From NCBI GenBank assembly GCA_021797815.1, contig JAJZYZ010000002.1, positions 1,256-65,255 of the forward strand: 64,000 nt of DNA, read 5' to 3'. The notes under the pieces were generated by a model. The model searched no databases, was not told where the DNA came from, and saw only the letters and a program-made list of their open reading frames with translations. The translations under genes were made by a program, and so were the position numbers. Below are positions 6,090 through 59,288 of this stretch, piece after piece. Position 1 is the first letter of the stretch, and each line of letters starts with the position of its first letter. Source of the DNA: Bacillota bacterium. Its GTDB lineage: Bacteria; Bacillota; Sulfobacillia; Sulfobacillales; JAIMBI01.

Positions 6090-6377
6090 TCGCGAGAGAC
6101 GCCAAATTCATGGCCGCCGGTCCGCACGCACGAGACGCGGGGCTACGGCCCCCCGATGAACGCCAGCAACATCGCTCTGCTCGAGCCTCCCAGGGCCGGC
6201 TCGACGAGAGTACCGGCGCGGCCGGCGACCCGAGATGTGGGCCAGCAATCGGGGTGTCTCTGTGCAGCGACCGGGGGCCGTCAGATGAACGGGACAAGTA
6301 TCCATCGCAGCGCACGCATCGCCACATTCAGGGGGTGGGCGGCTCGCCCACTCTCGGCAGGGAATGGGGACCAGGAG

Positions 6378-8266: not shown

Positions 8267-9676
8267 CTGAGCGCGAAGCAAGTCCTGGATCTTATCGAAC
8301 GCCATAAGATAGAAATGGTCGATCTGCGCATTGTTGACCTCTCGGGCCGCTGGCAGCATTTCAGCCTGCCCGCCACCGAGGTTGACGCGGACACCTTTGC
8401 CAATGGCATTCCGTTTGACGGCTCAAGCGTTAAAGGCTTTCGTACCATAGACCAGAGCGACATGCTGATGAGCCTCGATCCCCACAGCGCCGTTATCGAT
8501 CCGTTCGCATCGGTACCGACGCTGTCGGTGCTGGCCGATGTCCGCCTTCCTGATGGGAAGGAGTACGGCCGCGATCCCCGTACGGTCGCCCGGCGGGCTG
8601 AACGCTACCTGCAGGCGAGCGGCATTGCCGAGACGTCCTACTGGGGCCCGGAGCTGGAGTTCTTCCTCTTTGATACGGTCACCCATCATCTTTCGCCCAA
8701 CGCCGCGGGCTATCGGTTCGACAGTGAGGAGAGCGTGTGGGATCCATCTGAAGTGGCTGACCACGGTTACGTTATCCGCCCGAAGGATGGCTACGCGCTC
8801 CTGCCTCCCCACGATGCGACCATGGATGCGCGGACCGAGATCGTGCAGATGCTGCGACGCCAGGGCGTCAGGGTCGAGATGCACCACCACGAGGTCGGTG
8901 TGGCGCAGCAGGAAATTGACATCCGTTACAACACGCTCACGGCCCAGGCCGACACCGTCATGCTCTACAAGCACACGGTGCGAAACGGCGCCCGCCTGCA
9001 TGGCAAGACCGCCACCTTCATGCCGAAGCCGCTCTACGGTGACAACGGGAGCGGCATGCACGTGCATCAGTCGCTGTGGACAGGCGGAAAGCCGCTTTTC
9101 TTTGAGGCCGGCCGTTACGCCAACCTGTCGGACATCGCGCGCGCTTACCTGGCCGGCATTCTCATACACGCGCCCGCCCTGCTCGCCTTCACCAACCCGA
9201 CCACCAACAGCTACCGCCGGCTCGTTCCTGGCTACGAAGCACCGGTCAACATCGTGTTTTCGCGGGGCAACCGCTCGGCGGCCATCCGCATTCCGGTGAC
9301 GGAGAGTCCCGTCGCGACCCGGATCGAGTTTCGTACTCCCGACCCCACGTCGAACCCGTATCTGGCCTTTGCGGCCTGCCTCCTGGCGGGACTCGACGGG
9401 GTGCGGCGAAAACTTGATCCCACCGCGCTCGGATTCGGGCCGGTGGACAAGAACATCTACGAGCTGCCCGCCGAGGAGATGGCGGCCATCGCCAGCGTGC
9501 CGGGGTCGCTGGAGGAGGCGCTGTCGAGCCTGGAGCGCGACCATGAATTCCTGCTGGCTGGCGGCGTCTTCGAAGAGGATCTCATCAGCACCTGGGTGTC
9601 CATGAAGCGGGAGGAAGCCGACATGGTGCGCCTGCGGCCCCATCCGGCCGAGTTCACGCTGTATTACGACGCGTAG
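8267..9676 (+). CDS. glnA: Glutamine synthetase type I
   Basis: ORF track starts at ATG 8315. The in-frame upstream codons read (L/M)SAKQVLDLIERHKIE, continuous with MVDLRIVDL, and match the conserved GlnA N-terminus. CTG 8267 lies 9 nt after AGGGAG (8252..8257). There is no ATG/GTG/TTG in frame between the stop at 8258 and 8315. Stop is TAG 9674..9676. Confidence 0.9.
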   Translation: MSAKQVLDLIERHKIEMVDLRIVDLSGRWQHFSLPATEVDADTFANGIPFDGSSVKGFRTIDQSDMLMSLDPHSAVIDPFASVPTLSVLADVRLPDGKEYGRDPRTVARRAERYLQASGIAETSYWGPELEFFLFDTVTHHLSPNAAGYRFDSEESVWDPSEVADHGYVIRPKDGYALLPPHDATMDARTEIVQMLRRQGVRVEMHHHEVGVAQQEIDIRYNTLTAQADTVMLYKHTVRNGARLHGKTATFMPKPLYGDNGSGMHVHQSLWTGGKPLFFEAGRYANLSDIARAYLAGILIHAPALLAFTNPTTNSYRRLVPGYEAPVNIVFSRGNRSAAIRIPVTESPVATRIEFRTPDPTSNPYLAFAACLLAGLDGVRRKLDPTALGFGPVDKNIYELPAEEMAAIASVPGSLEEALSSLERDHEFLLAGGVFEEDLISTWVSMKREEADMVRLRPHPAEFTLYYDA

Positions 9677-13138: not shown

Positions 13139-13982
13139 AACGGTTCGGCGAGACCTGGACGGCCGCCTGGGTGGCCGGCGGGTTGCGGCGGTCGACTGGG
13201 TTGACTACCGCATGGTCCGGGGACGAATCGGGGCCGAGGCGCTGGCCGTAAGACTTACGGGACAGACGAGCCGCGGTGTCGGCCGTCGCGGGAAGTTTCT
13301 GGTCTGGCGGTTTCAGTCGGGTGACCGGCTCATCCTGCATCTCGGCATGAGCGGCCGCATTCGGGCAGGAGTGTCTCCCGGGGAGACGCGGGCACCGCAC
13401 ACCCATCTGGTCGTCACGCTCGATGACGGCACCGAGCTCCGCCTCGCGGATCCGAGGCGGTTTGGCCGGGTGGAGCTGGTGCCAAAGGGGAGCCGTCAGC
13501 CGCTGGCCCTGGGACCGGAGCCCCTGTCGCGCGCCTTTACGGCCCGTCGTCTGCAAATGGCACTTTCCGGGCGGCGAGCACCGGTGAAGGGACTCTTGCT
13601 AGACCAGCGGCTCCTGGCCGGCGTGGGCAATATCTACGCCGATGAGGCGCTGTTTCAGGCCAGGATCCACCCAGCGCGCAGCGGCGGGTCGCTGGCACCC
13701 GAGGAAGTCGGCCGCCTGCACCGGGCCCTCCGGCGGGTCCTGCGGGCGGGACTCCGACATCGGGGAACGACGTTTCGAAGTTTTCAGGACGGCTTTGGGG
13801 AGCCGGGCGGGCACGCTCCCCATCTGAACGCTTATGGTCGTCGGGGCAAGCCGTGTCCCCGGTGCGCCACGGCCCTGGCCAGTGCCGTGGTAGCAGGGCG
13901 CACCAGTCACTTCTGTCCGACGTGCCAGGTCATTCCGGCCAGATTCGAGACCGAGGGAGATAAGGACCGTGCAACACTTTAG
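13116..13982 (+). CDS. mutM: Formamidopyrimidine-DNA glycosylase
   Basis: (M)PELPEVETVRRDL N-terminus and C-terminal zinc finger CPRC...CPTC. GTG start with GGAGGGAGG upstream. Overlaps the polA end by 23 nt. Confidence 0.9.
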   Translation: MPELPEVETVRRDLDGRLGGRRVAAVDWVDYRMVRGRIGAEALAVRLTGQTSRGVGRRGKFLVWRFQSGDRLILHLGMSGRIRAGVSPGETRAPHTHLVVTLDDGTELRLADPRRFGRVELVPKGSRQPLALGPEPLSRAFTARRLQMALSGRRAPVKGLLLDQRLLAGVGNIYADEALFQARIHPARSGGSLAPEEVGRLHRALRRVLRAGLRHRGTTFRSFQDGFGEPGGHAPHLNAYGRRGKPCPRCATALASAVVAGRTSHFCPTCQVIPARFETEGDKDRATL

Positions 13983-19834: not shown

Positions 19835-21051
19835 GTGTGTACCAGCATCTTGCCACACGCGCAGCCTTGGTGGCGCGCCTGGAGGCCCTTTGCACGCCAC
19901 CGCCGGCGGCATTCTTCGGGTGGAGAAATTCTAGACCTTGAAAGACGGGTGGCCGTCCCGGTCCGTGCAACCACAGAGCGCCGAACCACTTCGCGTCCGC
20001 ACCTGGTGAATCTGCCGGCGACTCGTGAAGCTCCGGTAGGTCTATGCGACTGCGGCCCGTCCGGCGCCCGGGCCCTGACGCGCGGCTGTTGGAACCACGG
20101 CCGCGGGCCGACCGGGGCGCCTGGAGCCCGTGTGCCCCTGGGGCCTTCCATGACGGACCGGATACCCCAAGATTGGGGCCCCGGGCCTGGTACAGGAGCT
20201 GAGGCGCCCACCGGGAGGTCAGGCGCGATGCAAGCGTCGGAGCCGGAGCGGGTGTGCGACGTCGGTGACGACGGATTTGTCCCCGTCAAGACGCTGACCG
20301 GCCCTAACCCTGTTTGGCGGGTGTGATGACAGCTTGTTGCGACGACGGGCAGATCGTGGGCGGGACAAGCCATTGGACGACCGGATACTGCTTCACGGGC
20401 AGGGTTGGATCCCTGATTCGCATCGGTCGTCGGGGTGGATTTCTCTGCCATCAGGACGCGGCGGCAAGGCTCAACGAGTCCCTGGACCTCCCGAGGAAGC
20501 CGCGCGTTTGGGCGTACGCGAGGAGCGGGACATGCGGCGGTCGTCCGTCTCGGTGATGGCAGGGCGGGCAGCGAGGCGTGCCCCTTCCTGCCGGAGCTGG
20601 CCGTGACCCGTGGCCTCATCCCCAATCCAGGACCGGCCGATAACACGGTATCGAACCCGCCGGGGAGCGACGGACTACCGACGCGGCCGCTGTGCGGCCG
20701 CGCGCTGGATCTTGGCGGTCGGCCACATGGTCTTCTGCTCCGTGCGGGTGATACTCATACCTGCCTCTTTCGGGGGAGCGGCGGCAGCCGGCCGTAACGC
20801 GTCCCACCGTCTCTTGCCGGGACCGCACGCGGATTCCCCGACCGCCGTCTGCAGTCCGTGCACGGGGACTTCGCTTCCCCATCATCAAGAAGGGCCCGAC
20901 AAGAGGCGTGCGGCCGGGCGCCGCGTCTCGCCTGAGCGGCTTTTCCAGGGCCCGGGGGCCATGCTACACTTCAGGGGCCGGACAGTCGGACTCCGGCGGG
21001 ATGCATATCCGCCAGTCGAAATCCCCGGGGTCCGGTGGAAAGGAGCGATTC

Positions 21052-21960
21052 ATGGCGCTTCGCGAAATCGCGCGCCCGACGCTCGATGGTCTCCCGCTCG
21101 GTCCCGGCAAGAAGAGTCGACTCTACCGCCTCCTGTACCAGCACGGGCCCGCCAACGGCACCCTCTTGGTACTCCCGATCGACCAGGGATTGGAACACGG
21201 CCCGCGGGATTTCTTGGACGCACCGGAGAGCGCCGACCCCGAATTTCAGTTCAGCCTGGCGGCCGAGGGGCGCTACTCCGCGATTGCCTGTCAGATCGGC
21301 CTCGCGGAGAAATTCTATCCGCGGTATGCCGGTCAGGTTCCCCTCATTTTGAAGCTCAACGGCAAGACCGAAATTCCTTCTGATGCGGCTCCCCTGTCCC
21401 CGGTCATTGCGTCTGTCGAAGATGCCGTCCGGCTGGGAGCCGATGCAGTCGGCTACACCCTTTACATCGGCTCCTCGTTGCAGGATCGGGACTTCGCCCA
21501 ATTCAGGGAGGTTCGCCAGCAGGCGGACCGTTTCGGCATGCCCGTCGTAGTGTGGTCGTATCCGCGGGGCGACGCCGTTGAGGCCCGGGGAGGCAAGGAC
21601 ACCGTCTATGCCATCGATTACGCGGCGCGGGTTGCGCAGGAGCTGGGCGCCGACGTGATCAAGCTGAACGTACCGAGTGTCAACGCAGAGAAGCTAGAGG
21701 CGGCACCTCGGGCCTATCAGCGTGAGTGGACCCCAGACGAGGCGCTGAGGCAGGTTGTCCGGTCGGCAGGTCGGGCCCTTGTCATCTTCGCCGGTGGGGA
21801 GAAGGGTACCCACGACCAGATGATGCAAAAGGCGCGCGACTGCATGGCGGCCGGCGCCACCGGTCTTATTTTCGGCCGGAATGTGTGGCAGCGGCCGCGG
21901 GGCGAGGCGCTTTCGGTCACGCAGGAAATTCATGCCCTGCTGCAGGATTACGGCCAGTAG
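21052..21960 (+). CDS. Class I fructose-bisphosphate aldolase family (FbaB/DhnA type)
   Basis: ORF 20908..21960. LPIDQGLEHGP, ILKLNGKT, VIKLNVP and GLIFGRNVWQ are collinear with E. coli FbaB blocks as I remember them. ATG 21052 lies 6 nt after GGAAAGGAG. Confidence 0.8.
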   Translation: MALREIARPTLDGLPLGPGKKSRLYRLLYQHGPANGTLLVLPIDQGLEHGPRDFLDAPESADPEFQFSLAAEGRYSAIACQIGLAEKFYPRYAGQVPLILKLNGKTEIPSDAAPLSPVIASVEDAVRLGADAVGYTLYIGSSLQDRDFAQFREVRQQADRFGMPVVVWSYPRGDAVEARGGKDTVYAIDYAARVAQELGADVIKLNVPSVNAEKLEAAPRAYQREWTPDEALRQVVRSAGRALVIFAGGEKGTHDQMMQKARDCMAAGATGLIFGRNVWQRPRGEALSVTQEIHALLQDYGQ

Positions 21961-22364
21961 TCCACTCCCTTTACCGCAAGGTTCCGGGGCCGACACGCGA
22001 AGACCCCCCGACTACGCTGGAGTGCGTGCTCGGGGGGTGTGCTTGCATTCGGAAGCGGCCAAGGGGGGCGCGGCCCGAGCTTTCGGGAGATGAGAAGCCG
22101 TGGACCGGACGCCGTTGGCCTCTGCACTTTGTCATCCCCCGCCCCCACATCGCGCTCTGTGTAAGCAGGGCGGGAGGTGGTCGCTGGCCTGTGCGTGCGG
22201 GCCCCCTGGCGCCCAGCCGCCTCGGGAGCGTCCGCCCGCGCCGTGGCCGTGCCTCCGACGGACCGGCGGTCGGCGTCCCGGTACCAGTATAATGGGCATG
22301 TCGGCGGGTGGCCGGCGCCAATAGAGTAGGGGGCGAGGTGATCCCTGCCCAGGCAGGGGCCGCG

Positions 22365-23444
22365 ATGGACATATTCGAAGCAATGCGCCGGCGTGGGCAC
22401 GAGCAGCTGATCTTCAACTTCGACAAGGCCACGGGGCTTCGCGCCATCATCGCGATTCATGACACGACTCTGGGCCCGGCCCTCGGTGGATGTCGCATGT
22501 GGCCCTACAGCAGCGAGGATGCGGCAATCGAGGATGCTCTCCGGCTCTCGGAGGGCATGACCTACAAGTCGGCCGCGGCCGGTCTCGACCACGGTGGTGG
22601 CAAGGCCGTTATCATCGGCAATCCGGCCACGGACAAGACTGAGGCATTATTTCGGGCTTTCGGCCGCTTTTTGGAGACACTCAACGGACGCTTCGTCAGT
22701 GGGGAAGATATGGGCACCCAGGGCGAGGATTTCGTCCATGCCCACCGTGAGACGGCATACCTGGTGGGACTGCCGGAAGCGTACGGAGGTTCGGGGGACA
22801 CCGGCGAGCTGACGGCGCTCGGGGTCTTGCAGGCTATTCGGGCGGGGTTGCGGCACAAGTTCGGGCAGGACAGCCTCGAAGGACGGCGCATCGTGGTCCA
22901 GGGGCTGGGCAAAGTCGGGCGTCGGGTCGTGGCCCGCGCCGTCGGCGCGGGTGCCGAGGTGCTGGTGGCCGACATCGATCCCCAGGCCGTCGGCACGATG
23001 ACGGCGGAGTTCGGGGTCGAGCCCCTTGACCCATGGTCCGTGGACGAGACGCCCTGCGACGTGTTCGCACCCTGCGCGCTCGGCCAGGTCATCAATGCGG
23101 AAAGCGTCGAGCGGCTTTCATGCGCCATTGTGGCGGGGTCGGCCAACAATCAGCTCGCGGACGAAAGCATGGGCGACCGGCTGCGCGAGCGGCACATTCT
23201 CTACGCCCCGGACTTCATCACCAATGCGGGCGGTCTCCTGCAGGTAGCAGATGAGCTTGAGGGCTTCTCGGCGGAGCGCGCCCGGCATCGCGTGGAGGGC
23301 ATCTACGACTTTCTGCTGACGCTGTTTCGCGAGTCCGACGCCCGCGATCTGGCCACCAACCGGCTCGCGCTGACCCTGGTGGAGGAACGCCTGGCGTTAT
23401 ACCAGAGCATCCACCGGATCTACACGGGATCCTCGTCCCGCTAG
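22365..23444 (+). CDS. Leucine dehydrogenase (Glu/Leu/Phe/Val dehydrogenase family)
   Basis: MDIFEAMRRRGHEQLIFNFDKATGLRAIIAIHDTTLGPALGGCRMW...GGGKAVIIG closely parallels Bacillus Bcd. Start moved from 22308 to ATG 22365. Confidence 0.9.
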   Translation: MDIFEAMRRRGHEQLIFNFDKATGLRAIIAIHDTTLGPALGGCRMWPYSSEDAAIEDALRLSEGMTYKSAAAGLDHGGGKAVIIGNPATDKTEALFRAFGRFLETLNGRFVSGEDMGTQGEDFVHAHRETAYLVGLPEAYGGSGDTGELTALGVLQAIRAGLRHKFGQDSLEGRRIVVQGLGKVGRRVVARAVGAGAEVLVADIDPQAVGTMTAEFGVEPLDPWSVDETPCDVFAPCALGQVINAESVERLSCAIVAGSANNQLADESMGDRLRERHILYAPDFITNAGGLLQVADELEGFSAERARHRVEGIYDFLLTLFRESDARDLATNRLALTLVEERLALYQSIHRIYTGSSSR

Positions 23445-36959: not shown

Positions 36960-37021
36960 GAAGGCCAGTGTACCGCACCCGAATGGTGCTCTGGTACAAT
37001 CACGACGAGTCGGAGGTGTCG

Positions 37022-37627
37022 TTGCTGGTTCGGCCCATTTATATCATCCCGCGTGACTCCGGCGTGCTCCGCGCCCGTTCCACCCGCGTCCGCTCGGTGC
37101 GCGAGGGAAGCGCCGTCATCCAGGACCTGATCGACACCTGGCCCACGGTTGCCGCCCACGGCATTGCCGCGCCCCAGATCGGAGTCAACCGGCGTCTGTT
37201 CGTGTACCGGCCTTACGAGGACGAGGACGATGTGCCGCCGACCGGGCTCATGAATCCCAAAATCATCAAGGCCAGCGGTGAGGTCATGGACTTCGACGGC
37301 TGCCTGTCAGTTCCGGGACTGTATGGTCAAACGCGGCGGGCGGAACGCATAGTCGTGAGCGCCGACGCGTCGGATGGTACGCCCGTACGGCTCAAGTTCG
37401 AAGGATTTACGGCCCGGATTGTCCAGCACGAGATCGATCACCTGGAGGGGGTCCTGTTCATCGACCGCCTGGACACGGTCGACGACCTCTACACCGTCGC
37501 CGAAGAGGTTCCCGAAGAGGGCGAGGGCGGAGAACCTAAGCTCGTGCGGGTGCCGCTCACCGACGAGGCGCGGGGACTCATCCTGCGCGAACAGCGTCCC
37601 ATCCCCGGTCACGCCCTGCACTGGTAG
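37022..37627 (+). CDS. def: Peptide deformylase
   Basis: ORF 36968..37627. GIAAPQIG, DGCLSVPG, HEIDHLEG. TTG 37022 follows GGAGGTG (start uncertain). Confidence 0.9.
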   Translation: MLVRPIYIIPRDSGVLRARSTRVRSVREGSAVIQDLIDTWPTVAAHGIAAPQIGVNRRLFVYRPYEDEDDVPPTGLMNPKIIKASGEVMDFDGCLSVPGLYGQTRRAERIVVSADASDGTPVRLKFEGFTARIVQHEIDHLEGVLFIDRLDTVDDLYTVAEEVPEEGEGGEPKLVRVPLTDEARGLILREQRPIPGHALHW

Positions 37628-38200
37628 CTTACGCAAGGGATCTTATAGGGGCGGCCCGCCGATTGGCACCTAAGGGGCTCCGCGCATCGGCTATACTTTT
37701 CGTCCGCTTTTGAGCTGTAAGCTCTCAAGAGGCGTGGATGTGGTCGATGGCGCCAAAACCAGACATCCGGCCGGGGGTCGTGGTTCCGGGGCGCGCGGGA
37801 GCAGGCTCCCTGCCCCGCGCCCTTCGCAAGCAACAGGCCTCGGGATCCTGTCTGGGAGCCATGGGTTTCCGGCTGCGATCCGGCCTTCCGGACGCCCGCC
37901 GCGCTCTATGACCACGCTTACCACCCCGCACCGAGTGTGGGGTGGCGCAGGGTGCGGCCCTCGACGCGCGGGTGGCGTCTTCGGCCGTCGGGGGCGCCGG
38001 CTCGGCGGCCGTCTCTCCACCACCCCCGGGGAATGGGGCCTGTGTCCAGAGGATGAGTGAAGGCGGCCTACCCTGGTGCGGCCACCGTGGGCCGCCGTCT
38101 GGCAAATGTGATGCTCGACTCCCCTCCACGGAGAGGGGCCGGGCCAGACCTCGTTCAGGACGTCCAGGGCAACGGTGCGCACCGGCCGCGGAAGACGGGG

Positions 38201-38776
38201 CTACTTGGAGATTTTCACACCCGCAGCGTTCCCAGCCGTCTCACATAGGCCGTCAGACCCGATCCCGAGGCCGATATTGGTGATGTTGAAGACGTGCGCC
38301 ACCGCGCACAACTAGGCAAGCTCGCAGATTTCGCGTTCGCTGAAATGGAGGCGCAGGCGGTCCATGGTGTCTGGTTGTATACGTTTATCGCGGATAAGCT
38401 CAGTCGCGTAGTTGAGAGCCGCCCGCTCGCCGTCGGTGAAAAGCACACTTGTCCTGTAAGCTGGAAGCGCATCGAGGAGCACCGAAACTTCAGAGGACTC
38501 GCGGAGGGCGAACCATCTGTCAGAGTCCTGGCAGAATCCGCACCCGTTAAGCAGCGCGGCCTGGTCTCGGACCAGCATGCGGACCCGTGGCGGTAGCATC
38601 AGCTTCTTTTCGAGACTGCCAGCCTTGCCAAAGAAGGTGCCGAAGGCAAGGGGCATACGCGCCATGAATACCGCAAGCGGCGGCGGAACTTTACCAAACT
38701 GCCGACGTGCGAGCCGATACACGATCTTCATCGCGAGCCCACGGGGCCGCTCAATCCGGGAGAGATACGGAGTCAT
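38201..38776 (-). pseudogene. Carboxymuconolactone decarboxylase (AhpD-like) family gene interrupted by in-frame TAG at 38312..38314
   Basis: ORF track ends at ...SEREICELA*. The same frame then continues for 36 sense codons, LCAVAHVFNITNIGLGIGSDGLCETAGNAAGVKISK, to TAG 38201..38203 with 28/36 GC3. The CGFC motif is in the upstream part. Confidence 0.7.
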
Positions 38777-38818
38777 CGCATCGGGCTCCTTTCCTTTCCT
38801 TTCGTCCCTCGTCTTCTC

Positions 38819-38876
38819 GACCCCGACCCGCTGGCTGCTGTGACAGAGGTGTCACGTTTCCATGAAAGCTTGGGTC
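38819..38876. promoter_or_regulatory. Divergent pair of ECF41-type promoter motifs
   Basis: Minus strand: TGTCACA (38845..38839), 16 nt, GGTC (38822..38819). Plus strand: TGTCACG (38850..38856), 16 nt, GGTC (38873..38876). The reported ECF41 consensus, as I recall it, is TGTCACA-N16-CGTC. Confidence 0.55.
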
Positions 38877-39752
38877 TATAAATTGATGGACGAAAAAGAC
38901 CGGCTCGCCGAACGAGTCGAGGAGGAGCGGCCACGCCTGCATGCTGTGGCCCTTCGTCTCCTGGGTTCCTCCACCGAGGCGGAGGACGCCGTCCAAGAAG
39001 CATGGATCCGCCTCGGCCGCGCGCGCGTGGAGGAGATTCAGAACGTGGGGGCATGGCTCATGACCGTGATTGGGCATGTCGCCCTCAATATGCTGCGAGC
39101 GCGGTCTCGGTGTCGGGAAGCACCCCTGGAAGAACGATGGGTGGGAGGGGATCTCCTCGATCCCCAGGAGGAATCGCTGGTTTCCGAATCGGTTGGGCTC
39201 GCGCTCCTGGTGGTGCTCGAGACGCTGTCTCCGTCCCAACGCCTCGCGTTCGTGCTGCATGACGTGTTTGGCGTGGCCTTCGATCATATTGGACGGATAA
39301 TCCGCTGGTCCCCGGAGGTGGCCCGCCAGCACGCGAGCCGGGCCCGCCAGCGCGTCCGGCGCGGGACGCCGACAGTCTCTCAGGACGCGGCCGGGCAGGA
39401 GGGCGCGGCCGAGGCATTTTTCGCGGCCGCGCGGCAGGGAGATTTCAATGCCCTGCTAAGGGTCCTGGACCCGGATGTGGCACTCAGAGTACTCGTCGGA
39501 CCGGGCGAAGTGGTGGAGGAACGGGGCGCGGATTCGGTCGCGAGGCGCGCTGTGAGTTTTGCAGACCCGGGACTGGTGGTCCGGGAGGCGAACGTCGCCG
39601 GGATCCCTGGCTGGGTGGGCCTGCGCGGTAACGTCGTGGTATCGGCCGGGTCGGTGACCGTTCGTGGTGGGAGCATCGTGGCCATCGACATCGTCATTGA
39701 CCCCGGGCGCCTCCAAGGATTGGCGATTGCATGGTCCGGCGGTAGCGCGTGA
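38862..39752 (+). CDS. ECF sigma factor with fused C-terminal SnoaL-like domain (ECF41-like)
   Basis: Sigma2 RLHAVALRLLGSSTEAEDAVQEAWIRL, sigma4 LSPSQRLAFVLHDVFGVAFDHIGRII, plus a C-terminal extension of about 100 aa. The real start may be ATG 38886 (MDEKDR) if the upstream promoter motif is used. Confidence 0.85.
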   Translation: MKAWVYKLMDEKDRLAERVEEERPRLHAVALRLLGSSTEAEDAVQEAWIRLGRARVEEIQNVGAWLMTVIGHVALNMLRARSRCREAPLEERWVGGDLLDPQEESLVSESVGLALLVVLETLSPSQRLAFVLHDVFGVAFDHIGRIIRWSPEVARQHASRARQRVRRGTPTVSQDAAGQEGAAEAFFAAARQGDFNALLRVLDPDVALRVLVGPGEVVEERGADSVARRAVSFADPGLVVREANVAGIPGWVGLRGNVVVSAGSVTVRGGSIVAIDIVIDPGRLQGLAIAWSGGSA

Positions 39753-40488
39753 TGGTGGCGCGAAAGGCTGAGCGTGAAGCGCAGCCAGCCGAGCCTTCCC
39801 GCTGGCCCGCACCCGGCTGTCTGTGTTGCCCTATTGCCTCGCATGAGGAGCCCCACTTTTCGTTTGGGCGCCGAATGGCGACCAGATGGTGCGTGAAGGC
39901 GGCGGTGGCCAGGCTCGGGCGCGTCAGTGGCCTCCATCACGTGTCGCGGGGGCCGCATGTGGCGTTGGCACCACGAGCGTCGCATAATCTGGCGGCCACG
40001 GACGGCTCACCCGTCCGACTCGTGCGACCAAGCCCGGCTTCGGTGGGAGGAGCCGTTTCCCGTCCACCGCGGGCGCTGGATTTGGTCTCGTCGCTTCTGC
40101 ATCTGGTCGTCTCGCCTCGCGACCGAGGGACCGGCTCCACGCGGGCCGCCGAGAGGGGCATAGCCGCGGCGTTGCAGTCGCGCGGAAATTATAAATTGGT
40201 AAGAGTGTTGGAGACCCTCGGGACCGCGATAGGGGCCATAGCCCCGGGCTCCTCCGCGCGGACTGGAAGCCCGTGAAGGTCCACTCGCCGACCAACCGCG
40301 AAGTCGATCTGGGCTGCACGATGGTCCCGGGCGGGAAAAGAAAGAGATCAGCCCTGACGGTATCCCGTATGGCCGATCGGCCGTGCCGGGTTCGCGGACG
40401 GCGCGACGGGCCCCTCGGGACGTGGATCGTCCCCGCTTAACCGCCCGCCCCTCGGTATCTGTCCACTGGTGCCATCGGGATGCCACAC

Positions 40489-41808: not shown

Positions 41809-42110
41809 TGCCACCGAAGGCGCACGACCATTAAGACTTGGCGGCCGACCGGCCTGCCAGGTGATACTTGCGCGGCTGCCTGGTGACGGCACCCCATAGC
41901 TTTCCTAGTCGTGTACGCCGCCAGAACCGCCTCCGTTCGCGCACCAGCAAGCCATATTCTCCCTGACGGCCGTCCGGGGAATAGAGTGTGCAATGGCGCC
42001 GCCGCGGAACAACCGCGGTGTGCGCGGCGATGCAGGTGCAAGAAAGGTCTCAGCCGTCGGCCTGAAAAATCCAGCTGGCCTCTTTGCGTGAATCCGGACC
42101 GGGCGTACTC

Positions 42111-42699
42111 TTATGCGACCGCCCCAACCCCAAGGGTAGCGTCAATCCGAATCTGGGTTAACTGCCCATCCCGAAACGCGAGCCAGTTGGCCTGACGGCG
42201 CATCCGGTCAAATTCCCCCCGGGGGCAGTCGGTGCGTTGCAGGTCCGGGAGCGTACGGCGAGGGTGATGCGAGGTCGGGACGTCACCGGCTCCGTTCCCG
42301 AACGCGAGCGGCCCACCTCAGTTCATCCTTACGACCGAAAGACGGGCTTCCTCCTGAGATTCCCGTGGATCCGTTGGCGGAGGAAGTCCGGGGCAACTCT
42401 AGTTGGCTCGGGCACCCGATGGCTTCGCGGCCAGGAGCGCGGCCGCACTGCGTTCCGTTCTGGACCTTCACGTCATCGCTGGTCATCCCCTCGTCCTCAA
42501 CGTACGCACGTCCGTAGGTCCCCTCCACGAGGCCCCGGAGACCCCTGACCAGCGGGTGCCGGCACGCCGCCGGACTCCCCAAGTCGTCGGTGATCTTGGC
42601 GCGAGATTCGCGGCACTCGGTTGGAATGGCTCCGATGCCGCCGACCAGGCGTGGCTTTTTTGCGCACGATCCCGTCGCCACGGTGGCGCGACCGACCAT
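42111..42699 (-). pseudogene. Possible frameshifted remnant; C-terminal piece is NTF2/SnoaL-like
   Basis: 42111..42218 reads GEFDRMRRQANWLAFRDGQLTQIRIDATLGVGAVA*. The upstream part lies in another frame (ORF 42283..42699). The C6G5 homopolymer at 42215..42225 overlaps the upstream end of that C-terminal piece. Weak evidence. Confidence 0.2.
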
Positions 42700-43739
42700 T
42701 CAGTGCGCGATGGCGGTCTGGAGCCGACGCGCCTTTACGTCTGGGCCTCTGGTTGTCGGCCCCGCCGCGGCCTACGCCCCGGATCCCGCAGAGCACGTCC
42801 TCGCCTCTCAGCCCCCGTGGTTAGACGAGGCCCATAGGTCGAAACAGGGGCGTTGTTCCGGTTCGAGGATTCGGAGAATCCGGGCTCAGCTCGAGGCCAA
42901 TGGTCTTTTGGCGGCGGGGCGTCGTGGGCAAGGCCCGCCGGCGCCCCGAAAGTCCTCGACGGGGATGGGCTGGACACGTCCAATCCAGTCGCCGTGATGG
43001 CGGCAGGGAGCGCGGCCAGCGGGGGCCGAGCGCGGTACCGCTCCCGCAATCGATAGAACGCGGCGGCCCCTCAGCCTGCGCGGACTCTCGTTACAGTGCT
43101 GGCCGGGACCAGAGACCGGGGTGGAGCGAAAACGCTTCTCCAGGGTGGCGCCGTCGGAGGGGGAGCCAGGTCACCGCCATTTCGGGTGAGCACCTAGATA
43201 CGCTGGCCGCCTCCCAGAGGGGAGCTTACCCGCACCGGCATGCACGCACAACCGTAACTCCTCGTATCTATGGGACAGGATCCTGAGATGCACCGCGTGT
43301 TCGTTCCAGGAAGTCCTGTGGGTCTCGTTGAATCAGGATCACACCTCTTCCTCAGATGGGCCGCGATGGGCGGGTGTCGTGTGGTTTAGGACTGAATGAG
43401 TTCGGTCTGGCCGTTAGACGTGGATGCCCGGGACAGCAACGTCGTGGTCGCGCACAGCCTAGGCGCGCTGGACACCTAACGCAATACCGCGGCTGAGCGA
43501 GCTGAGTGGCTCTCAGGATGGGCTCCGGGGACTCCTTTGTCTGGGCAATCTTCAAGGCACTTCAATGTCACGCCAACGTAGCTGGGAGCTCGCAAGGGCA
43601 AAGGGTCCGGAACAGGTGCATCTCCTACGGATAACGAAAGGGGCATACGGATGTTGAGCCTGTCGCTCGGTGCCACTGGAGCGATCGAGGAGGGGGCCAG
43701 GTGGCGGTCCGTTACTCTAATTAGTGAGGGAGGAGAACG

Positions 43740-49411: not shown

Positions 49412-51281
<1,870 letters not shown>

Positions 51282-51301
<20 letters not shown>

Positions 51302-54300
51302 CTGGTTCCTCCTCCAGGATGGCGATGAGGCCCGCGAGCGGAACGCCCGCCCACTCCGGACGGTGGTCAAGCTCGTAGCGAAGTTCGTACAGGGCCTTTT
51401 CCAACAAGTAGACCGCCAGCAGATCGAAGAAGGCGGGTCCCTCCGGAAACAGTCCCAGGGTACCGAGCTCTTCCCGGTAGCGACTGAGAAAAGCGTCGGC
51501 GACGCCCCGGTACCAGAGATTCGCAAACCGGCGCACCCGGCCGGGCTCGGCGTCGGCGTCGTCCCGGATGAGCTCGACCGCCCGCGCCCAGACCGCGTAG
51601 TGGAAGGATCGCAGCATGCCGGCTACATCGAGGAGCGGCGAGCGCTTGATGCGGCGCTCCGAGAGGGGGCGTGCCGGCTCCCCTTCGAAATCAACGAACA
51701 CGAAGTCGCCCCCGGTGCACAGGACCTGTCCCAGGTGCAGATCCCCGTGGAGCCGGATGCGGAGTCCTTCGATGCGTGCCTTCAAGAGGGCGTTTGATCG
51801 CTCGAGCACAACATCCGGGTGTTCCAGGAGGCGGGCCGCGTATGCGGCGCCCAGCGGGTCGAGCATCCCCTGGCGCGCCTGCAGCGTGCGCATGGTGTGT
51901 CCGAGGGCGGTGCGGATACCCTGGTAGAGCCCGCGCTGATAGAACGGTGTGAAGGGCTCGGGCTGGAAGGCGCTGTCCGTGGTCGGGGAGGCAAGAGCCC
52001 GGTGGAGGGCGGCCGTCCGCTCCGCCAACAGGGTGACCCAGGGGAGAAAGGGGGACAGCAGGCGCCCCGTCAGAGCGGCCTCGCCCCCGTCAACCTCGAG
52101 ACCATCCGCGGCCGTGCCGGTGGCCTCCACAAGTTCGAAGAAGCGGTCAACCGCATCGCGGGCGTACGTCCAGGCATCGCCCTGGTTCGGTACGTACTGA
52201 AACGCCACCGCCAGCGTTGCGCGCCGCCCGCCTTCTTCCCAGTCGAGAGCCCCGGCCAGTTTGGGTGTGTACATAAAGCCCAGTTTTTCGAGATGGAGCC
52301 CCACTTCCCAATCCGGCTGCGATCCGAAGTGCACCTGGCGGTACAACTTCAGGATGAAGCGATCGCCGAAGGTGGCCGAGGTGTTGCTCTGCTCGCCCCG
52401 GAACAGCTGGGCGCGCAGATCGCGGTCGTAGCCGCTCTTCAAAAGAGGCAGCGGGACCGGACGAATGGTAACCCCGTCGTACTGAAGGGCGCGCGGGCGC
52501 GCCATGACCGCCATCACCGACTCCATGAACGAGGCCGACACGGTCGCGTCGAAGACGAGAGAGGCCGCACCGCCGGGGCCTTCGAGGCGCATCAGCACCC
52601 GATCTTCCACCGCCTGCGGCGCCGGCTCGCCGGTGACCCCGAGCGCCATCCAAAAGGTGGCGGGCCCGCCCTGCCCGCAGGCCACCTCGACCTGCGTCGC
52701 GTACACCGAGGACGCGTCTGTGAGATCACCCCACGGCACTGTCGTCCGCACCTCGGCGCCCCTCGGGTCGCGACTGCGGGCCGAAAACCACCGCCGGGTG
52801 CGGACATAGGGGAACAGCGCCCGCGACAACTCCTCACGTCGAGGTCCGGTCAGGACCTCGGGCCAGCGCCCGCTCACGGCGGGGAGCGCATGGCTGTGGG
52901 GTGCGGCCGGCTCGCGCGACTCGGTGAGCTGGAAATAGTAGAACCCGTGGGGACCGAGCGTCAGGAAATAACGGTCGGCGGTGACGGAGGGAAACGCCGT
53001 CTGGCCGAAGAGTTCCACCGGAATGCTGCCCTGATATTCATGCAGGTCCAGACTGGCCGCCTGCACGAAGCGCGAGAGGTTGGCGACAACCAGCACCGCC
53101 TCATCGTCTAACCGGCGGATGAAGGCCAGAACCTTGGCATTTTCCGGGGACAACAGCGTCATCGCCCCCCGTCCAAAGGCCGGGTGGCGCTTTCTGAGCG
53201 CAATGAGCCGCTTGGTCCACCACAGGAGGGAGTGCGGATTGGTGCGCTGAGCGTCGACATTCACGGCTTCATAGTGATATTCCGGGTCTACCACCACCGG
53301 CAGGCACAGTCGCTGAGGGTTGGCGGTCGAGAAGCCGGCATTGCGATCCCCGCTCCACTGAAAGGGCGTGCGTACGCCGTCGCGGTCTCCCAGGTAGATG
53401 TTGTCGCCCATTCCGATCTCGTTGCCGTAATAGAGCACGGGCGTGCCCGGCAGGGCAAACAAGAGGGCGTGCATCAGCTCGATGCGGCGGCGATTGTTGC
53501 CCAGCAGCGGGGCCAGACGGCGTCGGATGCCAAGGTTCAGGCGGGCTTGAGGATCGGTCGCGTACACCTGGTACATATAGTCGCGCTCTTCGTCGGTCAC
53601 CATCTCGAGGGTGAGCTCGTCGTGGTTGCGGAGGAAGATGGCCCACTGACCGGCATCTGGCACGGGCGGGGTCTGGTTCAGGATGTCCACCACCGGGTAG
53701 CGGTCCTCCATGTACAGGGCCATAAACAGGCGCGGCATGAGCGGGAAATGGTACGCCATGTGGCACTCATCGCCGTCGCCGAAGTACTCGACGGCCTCCT
53801 CCGGCCACTGGTTGGCCTCCGCCAGCAGCATGCGGTTCGGATATCGCTCGTCAATGTGACGGCGGAGATCTTTCAGATAGGCATGCGTCTCCGGAAGATT
53901 TTCGCATGTGGTGCCCTCACGCTCGTACAAATAGGGGACCGCATCCAGCCTGAGCCCATCCACGCCCATCGAGAGCCAGAAATCCACCACCTTCAACATG
54001 GCCCGGCGCACGTGCGGCGAGTCGAAGTTGAGATCGGGCTGATGACTGTAGAAGCGATGCCAGTAATACTGTTCCGCCACCGGATCCCAGGTCCAGTTGG
54101 AGCGCTCGAAGTCTTTGAAGATGATGCGGGCGTCGCGGTAGCGTTCGGGCGAATCACTCCAGACGTAAAAGTCGCGGGCAATGGAGCCCGGCCGGCTCCT
54201 GCGGGCGCGGTCGAACCAGGGGTGCTGATCGGAAGTGTGGTTCAAGACCAGTTCCGTGATGACCTTGAGCCCGAGCGCGTGAGCGCGGCGCAAGAAGCTT

Positions 54301-54575
54301 CTAAAGTCGCGGAGCGTGCCGTACTGAGGATGCACACTCTCGTAATCGGCGATATCATAGCCGTCGTCGCGCAGCGGCGAGGGATAGAACGGCAAGAGCC
54401 AGATGGCGGTGACGCCCAGGTCTTTCAGATACGGGAGCTTCTCGGTCAGCCCGCGAAAATCCCCCACGCCGTCTTGGTTGGCGTCGAAGAACGTACGGAC
54501 GTGGACCTCGTAAATAACGGCATCGCGATACCAGTCAGCAGTCTCCGAGACGGGAGCGGCCAGGTTTCCGGCCAC
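51282..54575 (-). CDS. treS: Trehalose synthase fused to maltokinase (TreS-Mak/Pep2)
   Basis: ORF 51282..54710. TreS part: [48 protein letters not shown]-terminal kinase part: [10 protein letters not shown]...VDFEGEP. GTG 54575 lies 7 nt after GAGAGGAG. Confidence 0.9.
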
Positions 54576-54606
54576 GTCGACACTCCTCTCATGGTGAGCC
54601 AGATGC

Positions 54607-56613
54607 TTATCGACCGGGATCAAAGTCCAGTTCGTTGGGGAGGCGGCCGCGGGGCAGATGGACCACCTCGAAGATGTGGGCGGGAAATCTGCCCGGGCGT
54701 AGCTCCACATAGTTGTGCGGGCCGGTCCAGATGTAGCGGTCCCCCGTCATCAGATCGTGGACCCAGAAGCGCGCGTCGGACGACAGGCCCAGGACCCCCA
54801 TATCGAGGTGCACGAAGCCGGCCACCGGATACGCGGGGTCGAGGGAGACCACGGTGAGCACGGTGTCGTCGCCTTCCGGTGAGCGCTTCGAGTATACGAG
54901 AAGCTCCGCGGAGTCGACTTCATGAAAGTGAAGAGAGCCCGACCACGCGAACGCCCGGTGCTCCCTGCGGATCTCGTTCAGACGCCGAATCTCAGGCGCC
55001 AGGCTTCCGGGACTGTCCCAATCCCAGTGGCGGATCTCATACTTCTCCGAGTGGAGATATTCTTCGCCGCCCGGAGTCAGCGGCACATGCTCTTGGAGTT
55101 CGAACGCCGGACCGTAGAGGCCGTAACTGGGGGACAGCGTAGCCGCCAGCACCAGCCGCTCGAGAAATACGCCGCGGTCGCCGGTCTGCAGGGAAACCGG
55201 GAGGATGTCCGGCGTGTTGACAAAGAAGTTCGGCCGAAGAAATGTCGCGACCGGCGGCCGCGTAAGCTCCTCAACGTACGCCCGTAGCTCTTCGCCGGTG
55301 TTGCGCCAGGTGAAGTAGGTGTAGGACTGCGAGAACCCGGCCTTGGCCAGTTCGTTCATGAGTGTCGGCTTCGTAAAAGCCTCGGCCAGAAACAGTACCT
55401 CCGGGAACTCCCGGCGGATGCCGCCGATGAGCCACTCCCAGAACCCGATGGGTTTCGTATGGGGATTGTCGACCCGAAACCAGCGGACGCCGGTGGCGGC
55501 CCAGAACCGCACCACGTCGTAGAGCGCCTGCCACAGGGCCCTCCATGCCTCGCACTCGAAGTCAAACGGGTAAATGTCCTGATAGCGCTTGGGTGGATTC
55601 TCGGCGTACTGGATGCGGCCATCCGGGCGCTTCTTGAACCACTCTGGATGCGCTGTCACCCAGGGGTGGTCGGGCGCGCACTGAAAGGCCATGTCCAGTG
55701 CGACCTCGAGCCCGTTTTCGCGCGCGGCCCGAAGGAGTCGCCGGAAGTCCTGAAGCGTGCCAAGTTCCGGGTGGATGGCGGTATGCCCGCCGGCCCCGGA
55801 TCCGATGGCCCATGGACTGCCCGGGTCCTCGGGGCCGGCATGCAGGCGGTTGTCAGGGCCCTTTCTCTCCACGAGGCCGATGGGGTGAATGGGGGGCAGG
55901 TAAAGAACGTCGAACCCGAGACCGCCGATGTAGGAGAGTCTCGCCGTCAGATCGGCAAACGTGCCCGCCCGCCCGGGCTCGGCCGCGGTGGAGCGGGGGA
56001 AGCATTCATACCAGGCGGAGAATCTGGCCCGCAGCGGATCTACCTGGACGGGGTACCAGTCACTTTCGGTGGGGAAGCGGGCTGGGAGAAGCCCGTTGGC
56101 CAGGACCAGGAGGGCAGGATCTCGCGCGGCCTGCGCGGCGCGTTCCAGGTCCGGGTCGGAAAGGCGAGTGACCCACGCACGAAGCGCGTCGCGGGCGGCA
56201 TCGTCCAGGGACGGGAGCGCCGCTTCTATCAGCACGAGGCCCACCGCCACGTCCACGGACGTGAGCGTGCCGGCCTGATAGAGAGCCTCGACGCCCCTCT
56301 GCCAGGTTGCCAGGGGGTCGACGGCTCCTCCCACTTGCAAGCGGTAAAGGCCGGTCGCGGTCCAGGTGTCGCTGCGTTCCCACCAGTCGTTTCCTGTCGG
56401 TGCCAGGGGCAGGGGCTCGCCGCGCTGTCCATCGGGATGCTCCCACCGGCACCAGGCTCGCAGCAGGTCGTGGCCATCCGCCAAAAGCCGCGCGCGCACG
56501 GCGATGGGAAGGCCCGCCTCGGCCTTGGCGGGACGGTATCCGGCATCCACGGCCGGTTCGACATCGAGAATGACGACCCGCTTGCGTCCCTCGGCTGGAA
56601 GGTCCACCCACAT
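54607..56613 (-). CDS. glgE: Alpha-1,4-glucan:maltose-1-phosphate maltosyltransferase
   Basis: [18 protein letters not shown]-terminus, [20 protein letters not shown]. Confidence 0.9.
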
Positions 56614-56882
56614 CCCCCGCTTCTCTCCGCCATTGGCATCGGCAATCTCCGCGACACGCCCATCGTAGCGCCGGTCCCCGGGGGCGGTCCAGGCGCAGTC
56701 GGCGGTCCTTCCGGTATTATGGGTCAGTGGGTGACCGCGGTCGCCCGCTCATGTTTTTCGACCGAGCCGCCGGGCGTGCGGAGCGCCTGCGGCCCGGCGC
56801 GTGACCGAACGACGGCCGCACGCCGCCGCAGAGGTCGTGAGAGATCGGACATTCACCGATGTCAGAAGGGAGGACCTCCTCC

Positions 56883-59288
56883 ATGGACCGCTTCGTGTGC
56901 GTGCATGGGCACTTCTACCAACCGCCGCGGGAGAACCCGTGGCTCGAGGCGGTCGAGCGTCAGGACTCGGCCGCGCCCTATCATGACTGGAATGCCCGCA
57001 TCACCGACGAATGCTATCGCCCGAACGCGCACGCGCGCATCCTGGACCGCGACGGCTACCTGCGCGCCGTCATCAACAACTATGCGCGCATCAGCTTTAA
57101 TTTTGGTCCCACCCTCCTGCAATGGCTCGAATCGGAGGCACCGGATGTCTATCAGGCTGTCGTGGAGGCGGACCGGGAGAGCCGCGTGCGCTTCTCGGGG
57201 CACGGATCGGCGATGGCCCAGGCCTACAACCACCTCATCATGCCCCTGGCCAGCCCACGCGACCGACTGACCCAGATACGGTGGGGACTCGAAGACTTCC
57301 GCCACCGATTCGGCCGCCCGGCGGAAGGGTTCTGGCTGCCCGAGACGGCAGTGGACGATGAGACTCTGCTGCTCCTGGAAGGAGAAGGCGTGCGCTTCAC
57401 CGTTCTCGCGCCCCACCAGGCCCGGGCCGTCGGCCTGATTGACGGGGAGGACGAGACGCCGATAGCGGACGGAGCCGCCGTAGACTCCCGGCACCCCTAT
57501 CGGGTCAAGGTCGGAGACCGCCTGTTGAGTCTGTGTGTATTTTTCTATGACGGCCCGCTCTCCCAGGGCATCGCGTTTAACGGGCTTCTTTCGGATGGGG
57601 CGCGGCTGGCCGATGCCCTGGTGGATGCCGCCGCGGATTCCGAAGGGCCATCGCTGGCCCACGTCGCGACCGACGGGGAGAGCTATGGGCATCATCACCG
57701 CTACGGTGAGATGGCGCTGGCCTTCGCCCTCGACGCCATCGAGCAGGGGAGCGGCGCCGCCCTCACCAACTACGGCGAGTTTCTGGAGCGCTTTCCGCCG
57801 GTTCAGTACGCCCGCATCGTGTCAGATACCTCCTGGAGCTGCATTCATGGGATCGAGCGCTGGCGCGCCGACTGCGGCTGCAACAGTGGCGGCCGCCCGG
57901 GATGGCGGCAGACCTGGCGAACTCCGCTTCGAGATGCCCTCGACCACCTCCGCGATGCCATGCGGCCGCTCTATGAGACGGCGGCGGCAGAACTGGTCCT
58001 GGACCCGTGGGCGGCCCGGGATGATTACATCCAGGTGATCCTCGACAGGTCCGGACTGTCCCGGGCCTCATTTCTGAACCGCCATCAGCGGCGTCTGTTG
58101 GGTGGCGCTGAGCGCATCCGTCTTTGGAAGCTTCTGGAGCTCGAGCGCCACACCCTTCTCATGTATACGAGCTGCGGCTTCTTCTTTGATGACGTGTCGG
58201 GGATCGAGACGGTGCAGGTGCTCCAATACGTAGGACGCGTGCTGCAGCTCGGAGCCGAGTTGTTTGAGTGGGAGCCGGACGCGGACTTCTGGAACCTTCT
58301 GGAGCAGGCGTCCAGCAACCTCGCCGGTGAAGGCAACGCTCGACGGCTGTATGAGCGGCGGGTGCGCCCGGCCATGGTCGATCTGGGCCGCGCGGCCGCG
58401 CACTGGGCGGTGGCGCTGGTCACCATGCCCGATGCCGGCCCTGCAAACGAGCTTTACGACTTCCGGATCGTGGACGAAGAGTATGCCATCCGCGCGGCGG
58501 GACGGACCCGGCTCGCGTCCGGACGGCTCAGTGTGGCGTCGCATACGACCGAGGAGGAGGACGGCTTCTATTTCGCGGCCGTGCACTGGGGCGACCACAA
58601 CGTCGTGGGCGGGGTGGCGCCCGCACGAGCCCACGACGGGTACGGAGGGCTGGTGGCGGCCCTGAACCCGGCCTTCGATCGGGCCGATCTGCCGGAAGTC
58701 CTCTCGATTCTCTCGCGGACGTTCGACAGGCGCACGTTTACGCTGCGGGATCTGTTTCGTGACGAGCAGGAGCGCATCGTGGCGCAGGTCCTGGCCGCCA
58801 CGCTGTCGGAGGTGGAGACCTCGCTGCGGCAAATTTATGAGTATCACGCTCCGCTCATGCGATTTCTTCGCGAGGCCGGCACTCCGCTTCCGCCGTCGCT
58901 GTCCACCGCGGCCGGATACGTCCTGAACCAGGGGCTCCTGCACACGCTTCGCGCGGACCCGATCGATGCCGCGCATCTCCTGCAGCTCCTCGAGGAGATC
59001 CGGCTCCTCGGGGTGCCCGTCGATGAGGCGCGGGTCATCTACGCCATGCGAATGTCGCTCGGGCATCTTGCCCGCCGCTGGCAGGCGGCGCCCTACAGCG
59101 AGCCGGCGCTGGACGAGCTCCTGGAAGCGATGCGGCTCTTTACCGGCATACCGATTGAGGTTGATGCCGGGTCGCTGGCCATTGTCTGCCTGCAGCTGCG
59201 CGAGCGGATGGCAGGACCAGATGTCGCTCCGGCCGTACGCGACAAGGCGAGCCGGCTCGCCGATCTCCTGCGGGTGCGCTGGTATTAG
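56883..59288 (+). CDS. Glycoside hydrolase family 57 protein with DUF3536-like C-terminal region
   Basis: ORF 56859..59288. VHGHFYQPPRENPW, ATDGESYGHHH. ATG 56883 lies 8 nt after AAGGGAGGA. Confidence 0.8.
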   Translation: MDRFVCVHGHFYQPPRENPWLEAVERQDSAAPYHDWNARITDECYRPNAHARILDRDGYLRAVINNYARISFNFGPTLLQWLESEAPDVYQAVVEADRESRVRFSGHGSAMAQAYNHLIMPLASPRDRLTQIRWGLEDFRHRFGRPAEGFWLPETAVDDETLLLLEGEGVRFTVLAPHQARAVGLIDGEDETPIADGAAVDSRHPYRVKVGDRLLSLCVFFYDGPLSQGIAFNGLLSDGARLADALVDAAADSEGPSLAHVATDGESYGHHHRYGEMALAFALDAIEQGSGAALTNYGEFLERFPPVQYARIVSDTSWSCIHGIERWRADCGCNSGGRPGWRQTWRTPLRDALDHLRDAMRPLYETAAAELVLDPWAARDDYIQVILDRSGLSRASFLNRHQRRLLGGAERIRLWKLLELERHTLLMYTSCGFFFDDVSGIETVQVLQYVGRVLQLGAELFEWEPDADFWNLLEQASSNLAGEGNARRLYERRVRPAMVDLGRAAAHWAVALVTMPDAGPANELYDFRIVDEEYAIRAAGRTRLASGRLSVASHTTEEEDGFYFAAVHWGDHNVVGGVAPARAHDGYGGLVAALNPAFDRADLPEVLSILSRTFDRRTFTLRDLFRDEQERIVAQVLAATLSEVETSLRQIYEYHAPLMRFLREAGTPLPPSLSTAAGYVLNQGLLHTLRADPIDAAHLLQLLEEIRLLGVPVDEARVIYAMRMSLGHLARRWQAAPYSEPALDELLEAMRLFTGIPIEVDAGSLAIVCLQLRERMAGPDVAPAVRDKASRLADLLRVRWY

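Follow-up and report, generated by a model that had tools for sequence, protein, structure and literature searches.

Does the in-frame amber codon that splits a CMD/AhpD-like gene on contig JAJZYZ010000002.1 mark a dying gene, a fault in the data, or a codon that is decoded? The gene (CMD for carboxymuconolactone decarboxylase) lies on the minus strand of a 64-kb stretch from a Bacillota bacterium, referred to here as the window, and stands divergently beside an ECF sigma factor gene. A reading made from the letters alone (the sequence-only reading) had predicted the split gene to be the target of this sigma factor and had left three explanations of the amber codon side by side, a very recent pseudogene, a sequencing error and readthrough. 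Comparison with sister strains, homologues and structures favours the pseudogene. With a probability of about 80%, the amber codon is a segregating nonsense allele, i.e. a young pseudogene, in a two-gene module under relaxed selection; positions of the features are collected in Table 1.

The open reading frame (ORF) ends with ...FSEREICELA at the amber codon, beyond which the frame stays open for 36 sense codons, LCAVAHVFNITNIGLGIGSDGLCETAGNAAGVKISK, up to a second TAG. This extension was reproduced from the ORF reading, and recomputation again gave G or C at the third position (GC3) in 28 of the 36 codons, which is coding-like. As the chance of an open stretch of 36 codons at 66% GC is ~40%, estimated from base composition, the open frame alone is unremarkable, and the extension is judged to be real because homology spans the stop. 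Database homologues of ~184-226 residues, 2197 in total, align across it. Orthologues ending naturally at ...ICELA would have spoken against a split gene, and none of the 120 best homologues (184-277 residues) is as short as 154; all 22 homologues aligned in detail continue through the stop column. NCBIfam NF053654 (YciW-related (seleno)protein) aligns with residues 36-177, likewise across the stop, although at 52 bits against an equivalog cutoff of 310 this match points to distant relatedness and continuity across the stop only. The PDB chains PA0269/7xw1 align with residues 41-172, nearly to their own C-termini (phmmer against PDB, E=1e-9). In the closest relative, P0001 of the same species, the protein has 191 residues with a tryptophan at position 155, and its final 36 residues are 100% identical to the extension. 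Together with the homologue and PDB alignments, this identity bears out the proposal that the downstream codons encode the genuine C-terminal helices of the family.

The tryptophan that had been expected at the amber position is found there in all 74 distant homologues (a 76-sequence alignment minus the two closest) and is encoded by TGG in the sister strains. At the DNA level the codon of P0001 is TGG as well, and the window differs from it by one G-to-A transition at the middle base, 38313 (a plus-strand coordinate, while the gene lies on the minus strand). The single-step origin of the stop, proposed earlier, is thus seen directly in a relative.

We next consider what the truncation would remove. 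The gene gives a sub-threshold but specific match to Pfam CMD (PF02627; 20.3-20.8 bits against a gathering cutoff of 23, E ~4e-4) and has an AhpD-like CxxC motif that aligns with the CxxC of PA0269 (phmmer against PDB). An AlphaFold (AF2) model of the intact allele (mean predicted local distance difference test, pLDDT, 88; predicted template modelling score, pTM, 0.81) shows an AhpD-like all-helical fold and matches Bmp8, PA0269, Atu0492, SMU.961 and AhpD over its whole length with a Foldseek probability of 1.0 and TMq of 0.62-0.78. A long helix is modelled at residues 147-169 (pLDDT 93-97), and after it come a conserved loop and a further, short helix. The stop at codon 155 would cut off two thirds of this helix and everything beyond. 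The same region is the best conserved block of the subfamily, with a mean top-residue frequency of 0.90 for residues 155-179 against 0.77 for residues 1-154, and the lost segment holds the invariant residues W155, H161, N164, N167, L170, S174 and C178. A profile search of genome contigs with the family alignment found 80 loci in other phyla and none in this species; the family pattern WL[VA]ASEH reads WLCAVAH in the lineage of the window. Because the stop deletes most of a long helix together with the most conserved block, loss of function is likely, and the 154-residue product is most likely misfolded or inactive.

The TAG allele is real and derived. The exact 154-residue product is encoded on 15 public contigs. 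Eight of these were read, and none differs from the window anywhere in the 576 nt, the TAG included. The carriers comprise GenBank metagenome-assembled genomes (MAGs; GCA_027419695.1, GCA_027419655.1 and GCA_027336045.1) and separately assembled SRA runs (SRR13236502, SRR13222495, SRR13235777, SRR13222494 and SRR13205815). For the comparison of strains, 14 haplotypes were aligned over 12.6 kb. Haplotype L008 carries the TAG and differs from the window at 21-23 other sites; the carriers L009 and L010 differ at 4 sites and L011 at 5. Within the TAG clade there are at most 23 differences, against 56-97 (0.45-0.8%) to the TGG haplotypes. The mutation therefore postdates the separation from the intact lineages and predates the diversification of the tight TAG clade. 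Two linked nonsynonymous changes that are specific to the clade (T32P and P95S), and two synonymous changes, segregate together with the TAG. At least 13 further assemblies of the species, at 0.2-0.8% DNA difference, have an intact TGG allele. In the 90% cluster there are no fewer than 12 different intact alleles of 191 residues, and a single submission series contains both kinds of allele under consecutive MAG accessions, DAIBKI to DAIBKN. Hence the description as a very recent pseudogene holds for the pseudogene but not for a lesion private to this genome, since the stop is fixed in a diversified strain clade and coexists with intact alleles.

The gene that diverges from the CMD gene 85 nt away matches an ECF41-type sigma factor. 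Pfam Sigma70_r2 and Sigma70_r4_2 score above their cutoffs, SnoaL_2 matches weakly at residues 184-273 (20 bits against 27), and the NCBIfam SigJ model PRK09636 aligns over the full length with 196 bits, below its subfamily cutoff of 271. The predicted protein thus has the sigma2 and sigma4 domains and the C-terminal extension of ~100 residues of the ECF41 group, and with the CMD gene it has an adjacent gene of the expected kind. ECF41 genes adjoin a COE gene (carboxymuconolactone decarboxylase, oxidoreductase or epimerase), which is their only detectable target; the promoter consensus is TGTCACA-n16(+/-1)-CGTC, 15% of the loci are divergent, and the motif often stands ahead of both genes (Wecke et al. 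2012, PMC3426412). In the window, TGTCACA-n16-GGTC lies upstream of the CMD gene and a mirror motif faces the sigma gene, the two predicted back-to-back promoters sharing the palindrome GTGACAcctcTGTCAC (38840..38855) within the 85-nt spacer. The -10 element departs from the consensus in the first base. Among 80 homologous loci, 12 have a TGTCACA motif with a (G/C)GTC -10 element, mostly GGTC, upstream of the CMD gene, and 8 of these 12 show the same departure. The CMD-facing promoter is identical in all 14 haplotypes. A divergent pairing of a CMD gene with a full-length ECF41-like sigma gene recurs in ~29 of the 80 homologous loci (Actinomycetota, Acidobacteriota, Chloroflexota and Myxococcota). 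The earlier prediction of the CMD gene as the target of the adjacent sigma factor is therefore well supported by the promoter motif and by analogy with the ECF41 loci.

Polymorphism among the 14 haplotypes suggests that both genes of this module are under relaxed constraint. The CMD gene has 12 nonsynonymous and 2 synonymous segregating sites and the sigma gene 19 and 3, while seven flanking genes (MFS, Def, LplA, S9 peptidase, FabH and two hypotheticals) have 10 and 15; the module at 31:5 differs from its neighbours at 10:15 with p=2.5e-4 (Fisher's test). The nonsynonymous polymorphism (pN) of the module, 0.028-0.029, is at the level of the intergenic density of segregating sites (0.012-0.031). 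In both genes the polymorphic residues strike conserved columns at about the chance rate: 42% of the polymorphic CMD sites fall on columns conserved to at least 80%, against 61% of all columns, and the corresponding values for the sigma factor are 53% and 45%. Under neutrality ~0.4 nonsense changes would be expected among 14 substitutions, and the single one seen agrees with this. A McDonald-Kreitman test of the CMD gene against the sister species (P0002, locus L105) gave 79 nonsynonymous and 99 synonymous fixed differences for 12 and 2 polymorphisms (p=0.004), which indicates that the gene was constrained in the long term and that the excess of amino-acid polymorphism is recent. In an independent check, the 90% clusters of the public collection were found to hold 30 distinct sequences of the sigma factor and 19 of the CMD protein, compared with 1-10 for six neighbours.

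Other strains carry a different lesion in the target gene. The invariant first cysteine of the CxxC motif is replaced in the C79R alleles P0123, P0127, P0128, P0131, P0133 and P0134 (loci L095, L097, L101 and L102, gene at 6001-6576), probably an independent loss-of-function allele, and some of these full-length alleles also carry G169A and D175N at near-invariant positions. On the side of the regulator, 25-28 of 28 relatives have F, T, R, E and E at the positions that in the window are V19, M67, C84, Q102 and H142. The ancestral residues persist in some sister strains; the L097 sigma factor is ancestral-like with F19, T67, R84 and E102. The sigma factor mismatches 21 of the 96 columns that are at least 90% conserved in its relatives, against a median of ~3. 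Its linker (residues ~90-100) reads RWV-----GG with a gap of five residues, where 22 of 28 related CMD-linked sigma factors have (V/L/M)PDP, which corresponds to the WLPEP-type linker motif of the ECF41 group; this motif is absent from the window. This divergence of the sigma factor and of the CMD protein from the family consensus may partly reflect a long branch shared with the sister species P0002, and it is not used as primary evidence of decay. Because the sigma factor and the other CMD alleles (C79R) also look relaxed, the stop appears as one symptom of a decay of the whole module.

The following course of events would account for these observations. A G-to-A transition turned the TGG codon of Trp155 into TAG in one strain clade of an uncultured, high-GC species related to Sulfobacillus and Thermaerobacter, in the gene for a putative thiol-redox protein of 191 codons with the predicted AhpD/CMD fold. 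Translation would halt 37 codons early and leave a product of 154 residues, and the gene would be a young pseudogene, with too little time for the downstream codons to have decayed. The lesion would be tolerated because purifying selection on the module, an ECF41 sigma factor with one divergent target, is relaxed in this species; we infer that the dispensability of the module is the reason. In both genes amino-acid changes appear to build up as fast as changes in non-coding DNA, whether or not a position is conserved, and the CMD gene would have been damaged independently in other strains through C79R in the catalytic CxxC.

Several points weigh against this account. Some of the TAG-bearing GenBank MAGs and Logan contigs may share reads, which brings the independent observations below 15, though not below five runs and three haplotypes. 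All TAG-bearing assemblies keep the 36 downstream codons perfectly intact; with 0.2-0.8 changes expected in the 108-nt tail at the observed divergence, this carries no weight either way. In some Bacillota UAG is read as pyrrolysine and yet also serves as a stop. The loss of function is likely on the grounds of conservation and a predicted structure. Finally, the ratio of nonsynonymous to synonymous polymorphism (pN/pS) of the module is ~2, above the neutral value of 1, though not significantly so (binomial p=0.065), and on pN/pS diversifying selection or selection for loss is inseparable from simple relaxation.

The last point bears on the alternative that W155*, C79R and the sigma variants are favoured or balanced rather than merely tolerated. 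A pN/pS of ~2 in both the CMD gene and the sigma gene, at least two different inactivating-type CMD lesions on different haplotypes, the occurrence of intact and TAG alleles in the consecutive accessions DAIBKI to DAIBKN, and promoters identical in all strains would each fit such adaptive loss or diversifying selection. Against it, the excess over neutrality is not significant, substitutions fall on conserved and variable columns at chance rates as under drift, and the single stop among 14 changes fits the neutral expectation; repeated independent stops or frameshifts were not found among the haplotypes, and conservation over a promoter region of only 85 nt is not informative. Relaxation is sufficient to explain the pN/pS of ~2, and we consider positive or balancing selection unlikely. 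A broader version, in which either the TAG is partly decoded and makes CMD output conditional or the W155* and C79R alleles are favoured or balanced in nature, appears improbable to us; if true, it would provide the first ecological handle on a sigma group without a known phenotype.

A further alternative is that the TAG is decoded, by a suppressor transfer RNA (tRNA), as pyrrolysine or through context-dependent readthrough, and that the 191-residue protein is made constitutively or conditionally. In its favour, the downstream codons are unchanged and coding-like, the allele persisted through the diversification of its clade, and the named relatives closest by PolA belong to the Bacillota (Sulfobacillus and Thermaerobacter with 52-54% identity; one MAG labelled Actinomycetia with 61%). 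The conserved tail was nevertheless rejected as evidence for readthrough, as within the TAG clade only 0.2 changes are expected and the comparison has no statistical power. TAG serves as an ordinary stop in the window, where 18 long codon-biased ORFs end in it. In agreement with the earlier view that TAG is not reassigned, five profile-checked genes (GlnA, Fpg, the class I aldolase, Def and GlgB) stop at TAG where their profiles end. The base directly after the premature TAG is T, and a stop followed by U is a strong termination context in E. coli. Neither tRNA genes (ARAGORN) nor Rfam elements were found in the window. The in-frame TAG is not conserved among orthologues, which like the sister strains have TGG/Trp, and it is limited to one strain clade; pyrrolysine or another residue at this invariant Trp position would probably be harmful, and the module shows relaxed constraint anyway. 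Hence we infer that there is no meaningful readthrough, and regard decoding of the TAG as very unlikely.

Even less probable is that the 154-residue product works alone, or as a split protein with a 36-mer re-initiated at the TTG right after the TAG. The CxxC lies upstream of the stop and is intact in the allele of the window, and besides the TTG there is a GTG three codons further on. Yet the homologues, none of them so short and all continuous through the stop column where aligned in detail, offer no counterpart of such a fragment; the truncation deletes seven invariant residues and most of a core helix, and by eye no Shine-Dalgarno-like sequence precedes the TTG. A sequencing or assembly error, with a true base at 38313 that gives TGG and an intact gene, would fit the one-base difference from the intact alleles and the metagenome-derived source, but it is practically excluded because the identical allele recurs in many independent assemblies, on haplotypes that differ elsewhere and in linkage with T32P, P95S and the two synonymous changes. 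Of the three explanations that were proposed, the pseudogene is favoured.

Table 1. Positions of the features of the CMD-sigma module and of profile-checked genes ending on TAG, numbered from the first letter of the window.
Feature	Position	Strand	Basis or remark
Truncated CMD/AhpD-like coding sequence, 154 sense codons and amber stop	38312..38776	-	ORF; ATG at 38776
Premature TAG, codon 155; ancestral TGG (Trp)	38312..38314	-	Sister loci L001-L006, L095-L103, L096
Stranded C-terminal 36 codons and original stop TAG (38203..38201)	38201..38311	-	Remainder of helix 147-169 and GLGIGSDGLC segment
CxxC motif C79-G-F-C82, AhpD-like active site, intact in the window allele	38531..38542	-	Both Cys invariant in 76 homologues
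Repeat (GAAAG)3 in the 5' leader of the CMD gene, with the ribosome-binding GGAG at its end	38786..38803	-	Haplotype comparison
Predicted ECF41-type promoter facing the CMD gene, TGTCACA-n16-GGTC	38845..38819	-	Motif match
Predicted mirror ECF41-type promoter facing the sigma gene, TGTCACG-n16-GGTC	38850..38876	+	Motif match
ECF41 (SigJ-like) sigma factor with C-terminal SnoaL-like extension	38862..39752	+	Pfam, NCBIfam
GlnA, ends on TAG	8315-9676	+	Residue 452/453 = profile position 462/462
Fpg, ends on TAG	13116-13982	+	Full profile coverage
Class I aldolase, ends on TAG	20908-21960	+	Full profile coverage
Def (adjoins the CMD gene), ends on TAG	36968-37627	+	Full profile coverage
GlgB, ends on TAG	51526-49412	-	Residue 700/704 = profile position 618/619

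The start of the sigma gene deserves a comment. Homologues align only from residue 9 (M9, ATG 38886), which lies 9 nt past the -10 element, whereas the annotated ATG at 38862 falls inside the sigma-facing promoter, past its -35 and ahead of its -10 element, and reads ATA in L001 and L002. The true start is probably ATG 38886, which suggests a leaderless mRNA and a protein of 288 residues. The M1I polymorphism was accordingly rejected as a lesion, because the homologues start at M9 and the upstream ATG stands inside a predicted promoter. In the leader of the CMD gene, three copies of GAAAG are present in the window and in most strains, and five in L097, L101, L102 and L103 (a 10-nt insertion); the copy number could alter the length of the leader or translation. 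A scan of 37600-38950 for sigma-70 promoters and terminators detected no promoter; its one terminator-like site, within the sigma gene, is no more than chance would give.

An anti-sigma gene, which ECF41 loci are expected to lack, is not evident beside the sigma gene; the next ORF has no Pfam match. This ORF (39752-40441, plus strand) is 229 codons long in L001, L008, L097 and L098 and 174 in the window, owing to a 1-nt indel near 40234; the 229-residue product is rich in Arg, Pro and Ala, and it is probably non-coding or a dead gene. On the other side, the CMD and def genes converge on a spacer of 573 nt (37628-38200), the most polymorphic stretch of the 12.6 kb, with 18-19 variable sites (3.1%) and neither a supported ORF nor an Rfam match. 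A 163-residue ORF in this spacer and the 229-residue ORF after the sigma gene, both without a Pfam match, were dismissed as non-genes.

Elsewhere in the window, ~1.9 kb that separate the MFS transporter gene from the next plausible gene (41809-43739) show no convincing ORF and no Rfam match and may represent decayed genes or an unrecognised element. An alpha-glucan metabolism cluster occupies 49412-54710 on the minus strand and 56859-59288 on the plus strand, with GlgB, a TreS-maltokinase fusion of 1142 residues and a GH57 plus DUF3536 protein of 809 residues. The best model for a 378-residue dehydrogenase (22308-23444, plus strand) is the tryptophan dehydrogenase ScyB, at 346 bits well under the cutoff of 600.

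For annotation, the preferred reading implies one pseudogene at 38201..38776 (W155*) of a gene that is otherwise intact in the species, and not a 154-residue protein, a recoding event or an assembly error. Beyond this, the locus would be a small but clean case in which a regulator and its target are seen at an early stage of decay in natural populations. In B. licheniformis and R. sphaeroides no phenotype followed the deletion of an ECF41 sigma gene or its COE gene (PMC3426412), and a joint decay of both genes fits this published absence.

The locus belongs to a known kind, and the amber codon, as an ordinary young nonsense pseudogene allele, opens no new question. Like the ECF41/COE modules described previously (PMC3426412), the module combines sigma2, sigma4 and a C-terminal extension of ~100 residues with a divergent <ECF< >COE> layout and TGTCACA-n16-(C/G)GTC motifs facing both genes. 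It departs from them in the -10 element, GGTC instead of CGTC, in a sigma factor that lacks the linker motif through a five-residue deletion, and in a target gene with a premature stop. The modelled protein shares the all-helical AhpD core of known AhpD/CMD structures (PA0269, 2ijc, 2o4d and 7xw1; Atu0492, 2gmy; the debrominase Bmp8, 6ohi/6ohj; SMU.961, 3lvy), and the alignments with PA0269 (2ijc, 7xw1), Bmp8 (6ohj) and SMU.961 (3lvy) reach the C-terminal helix. Unlike these structures, to which it has only 17-27% identity, the subfamily has a C-terminal block of its own, WLVASEH..N..N.GL.IGSDGLC, and it is this block that is absent from the allele of the window.

Young bacterial pseudogenes that arise from single nonsense mutations segregate within species. 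The CMD allele resembles them in its single transition, its undecayed flanking codons, the intact sister alleles and the raised pN/pS. It differs from the typical case in that the regulator is equally relaxed and that a second, probably independent allele of an inactivating type (C79R) is present in the species; the one mildly notable feature is the joint decay of a regulator and its target, the latter in at least two inactivating-type alleles.

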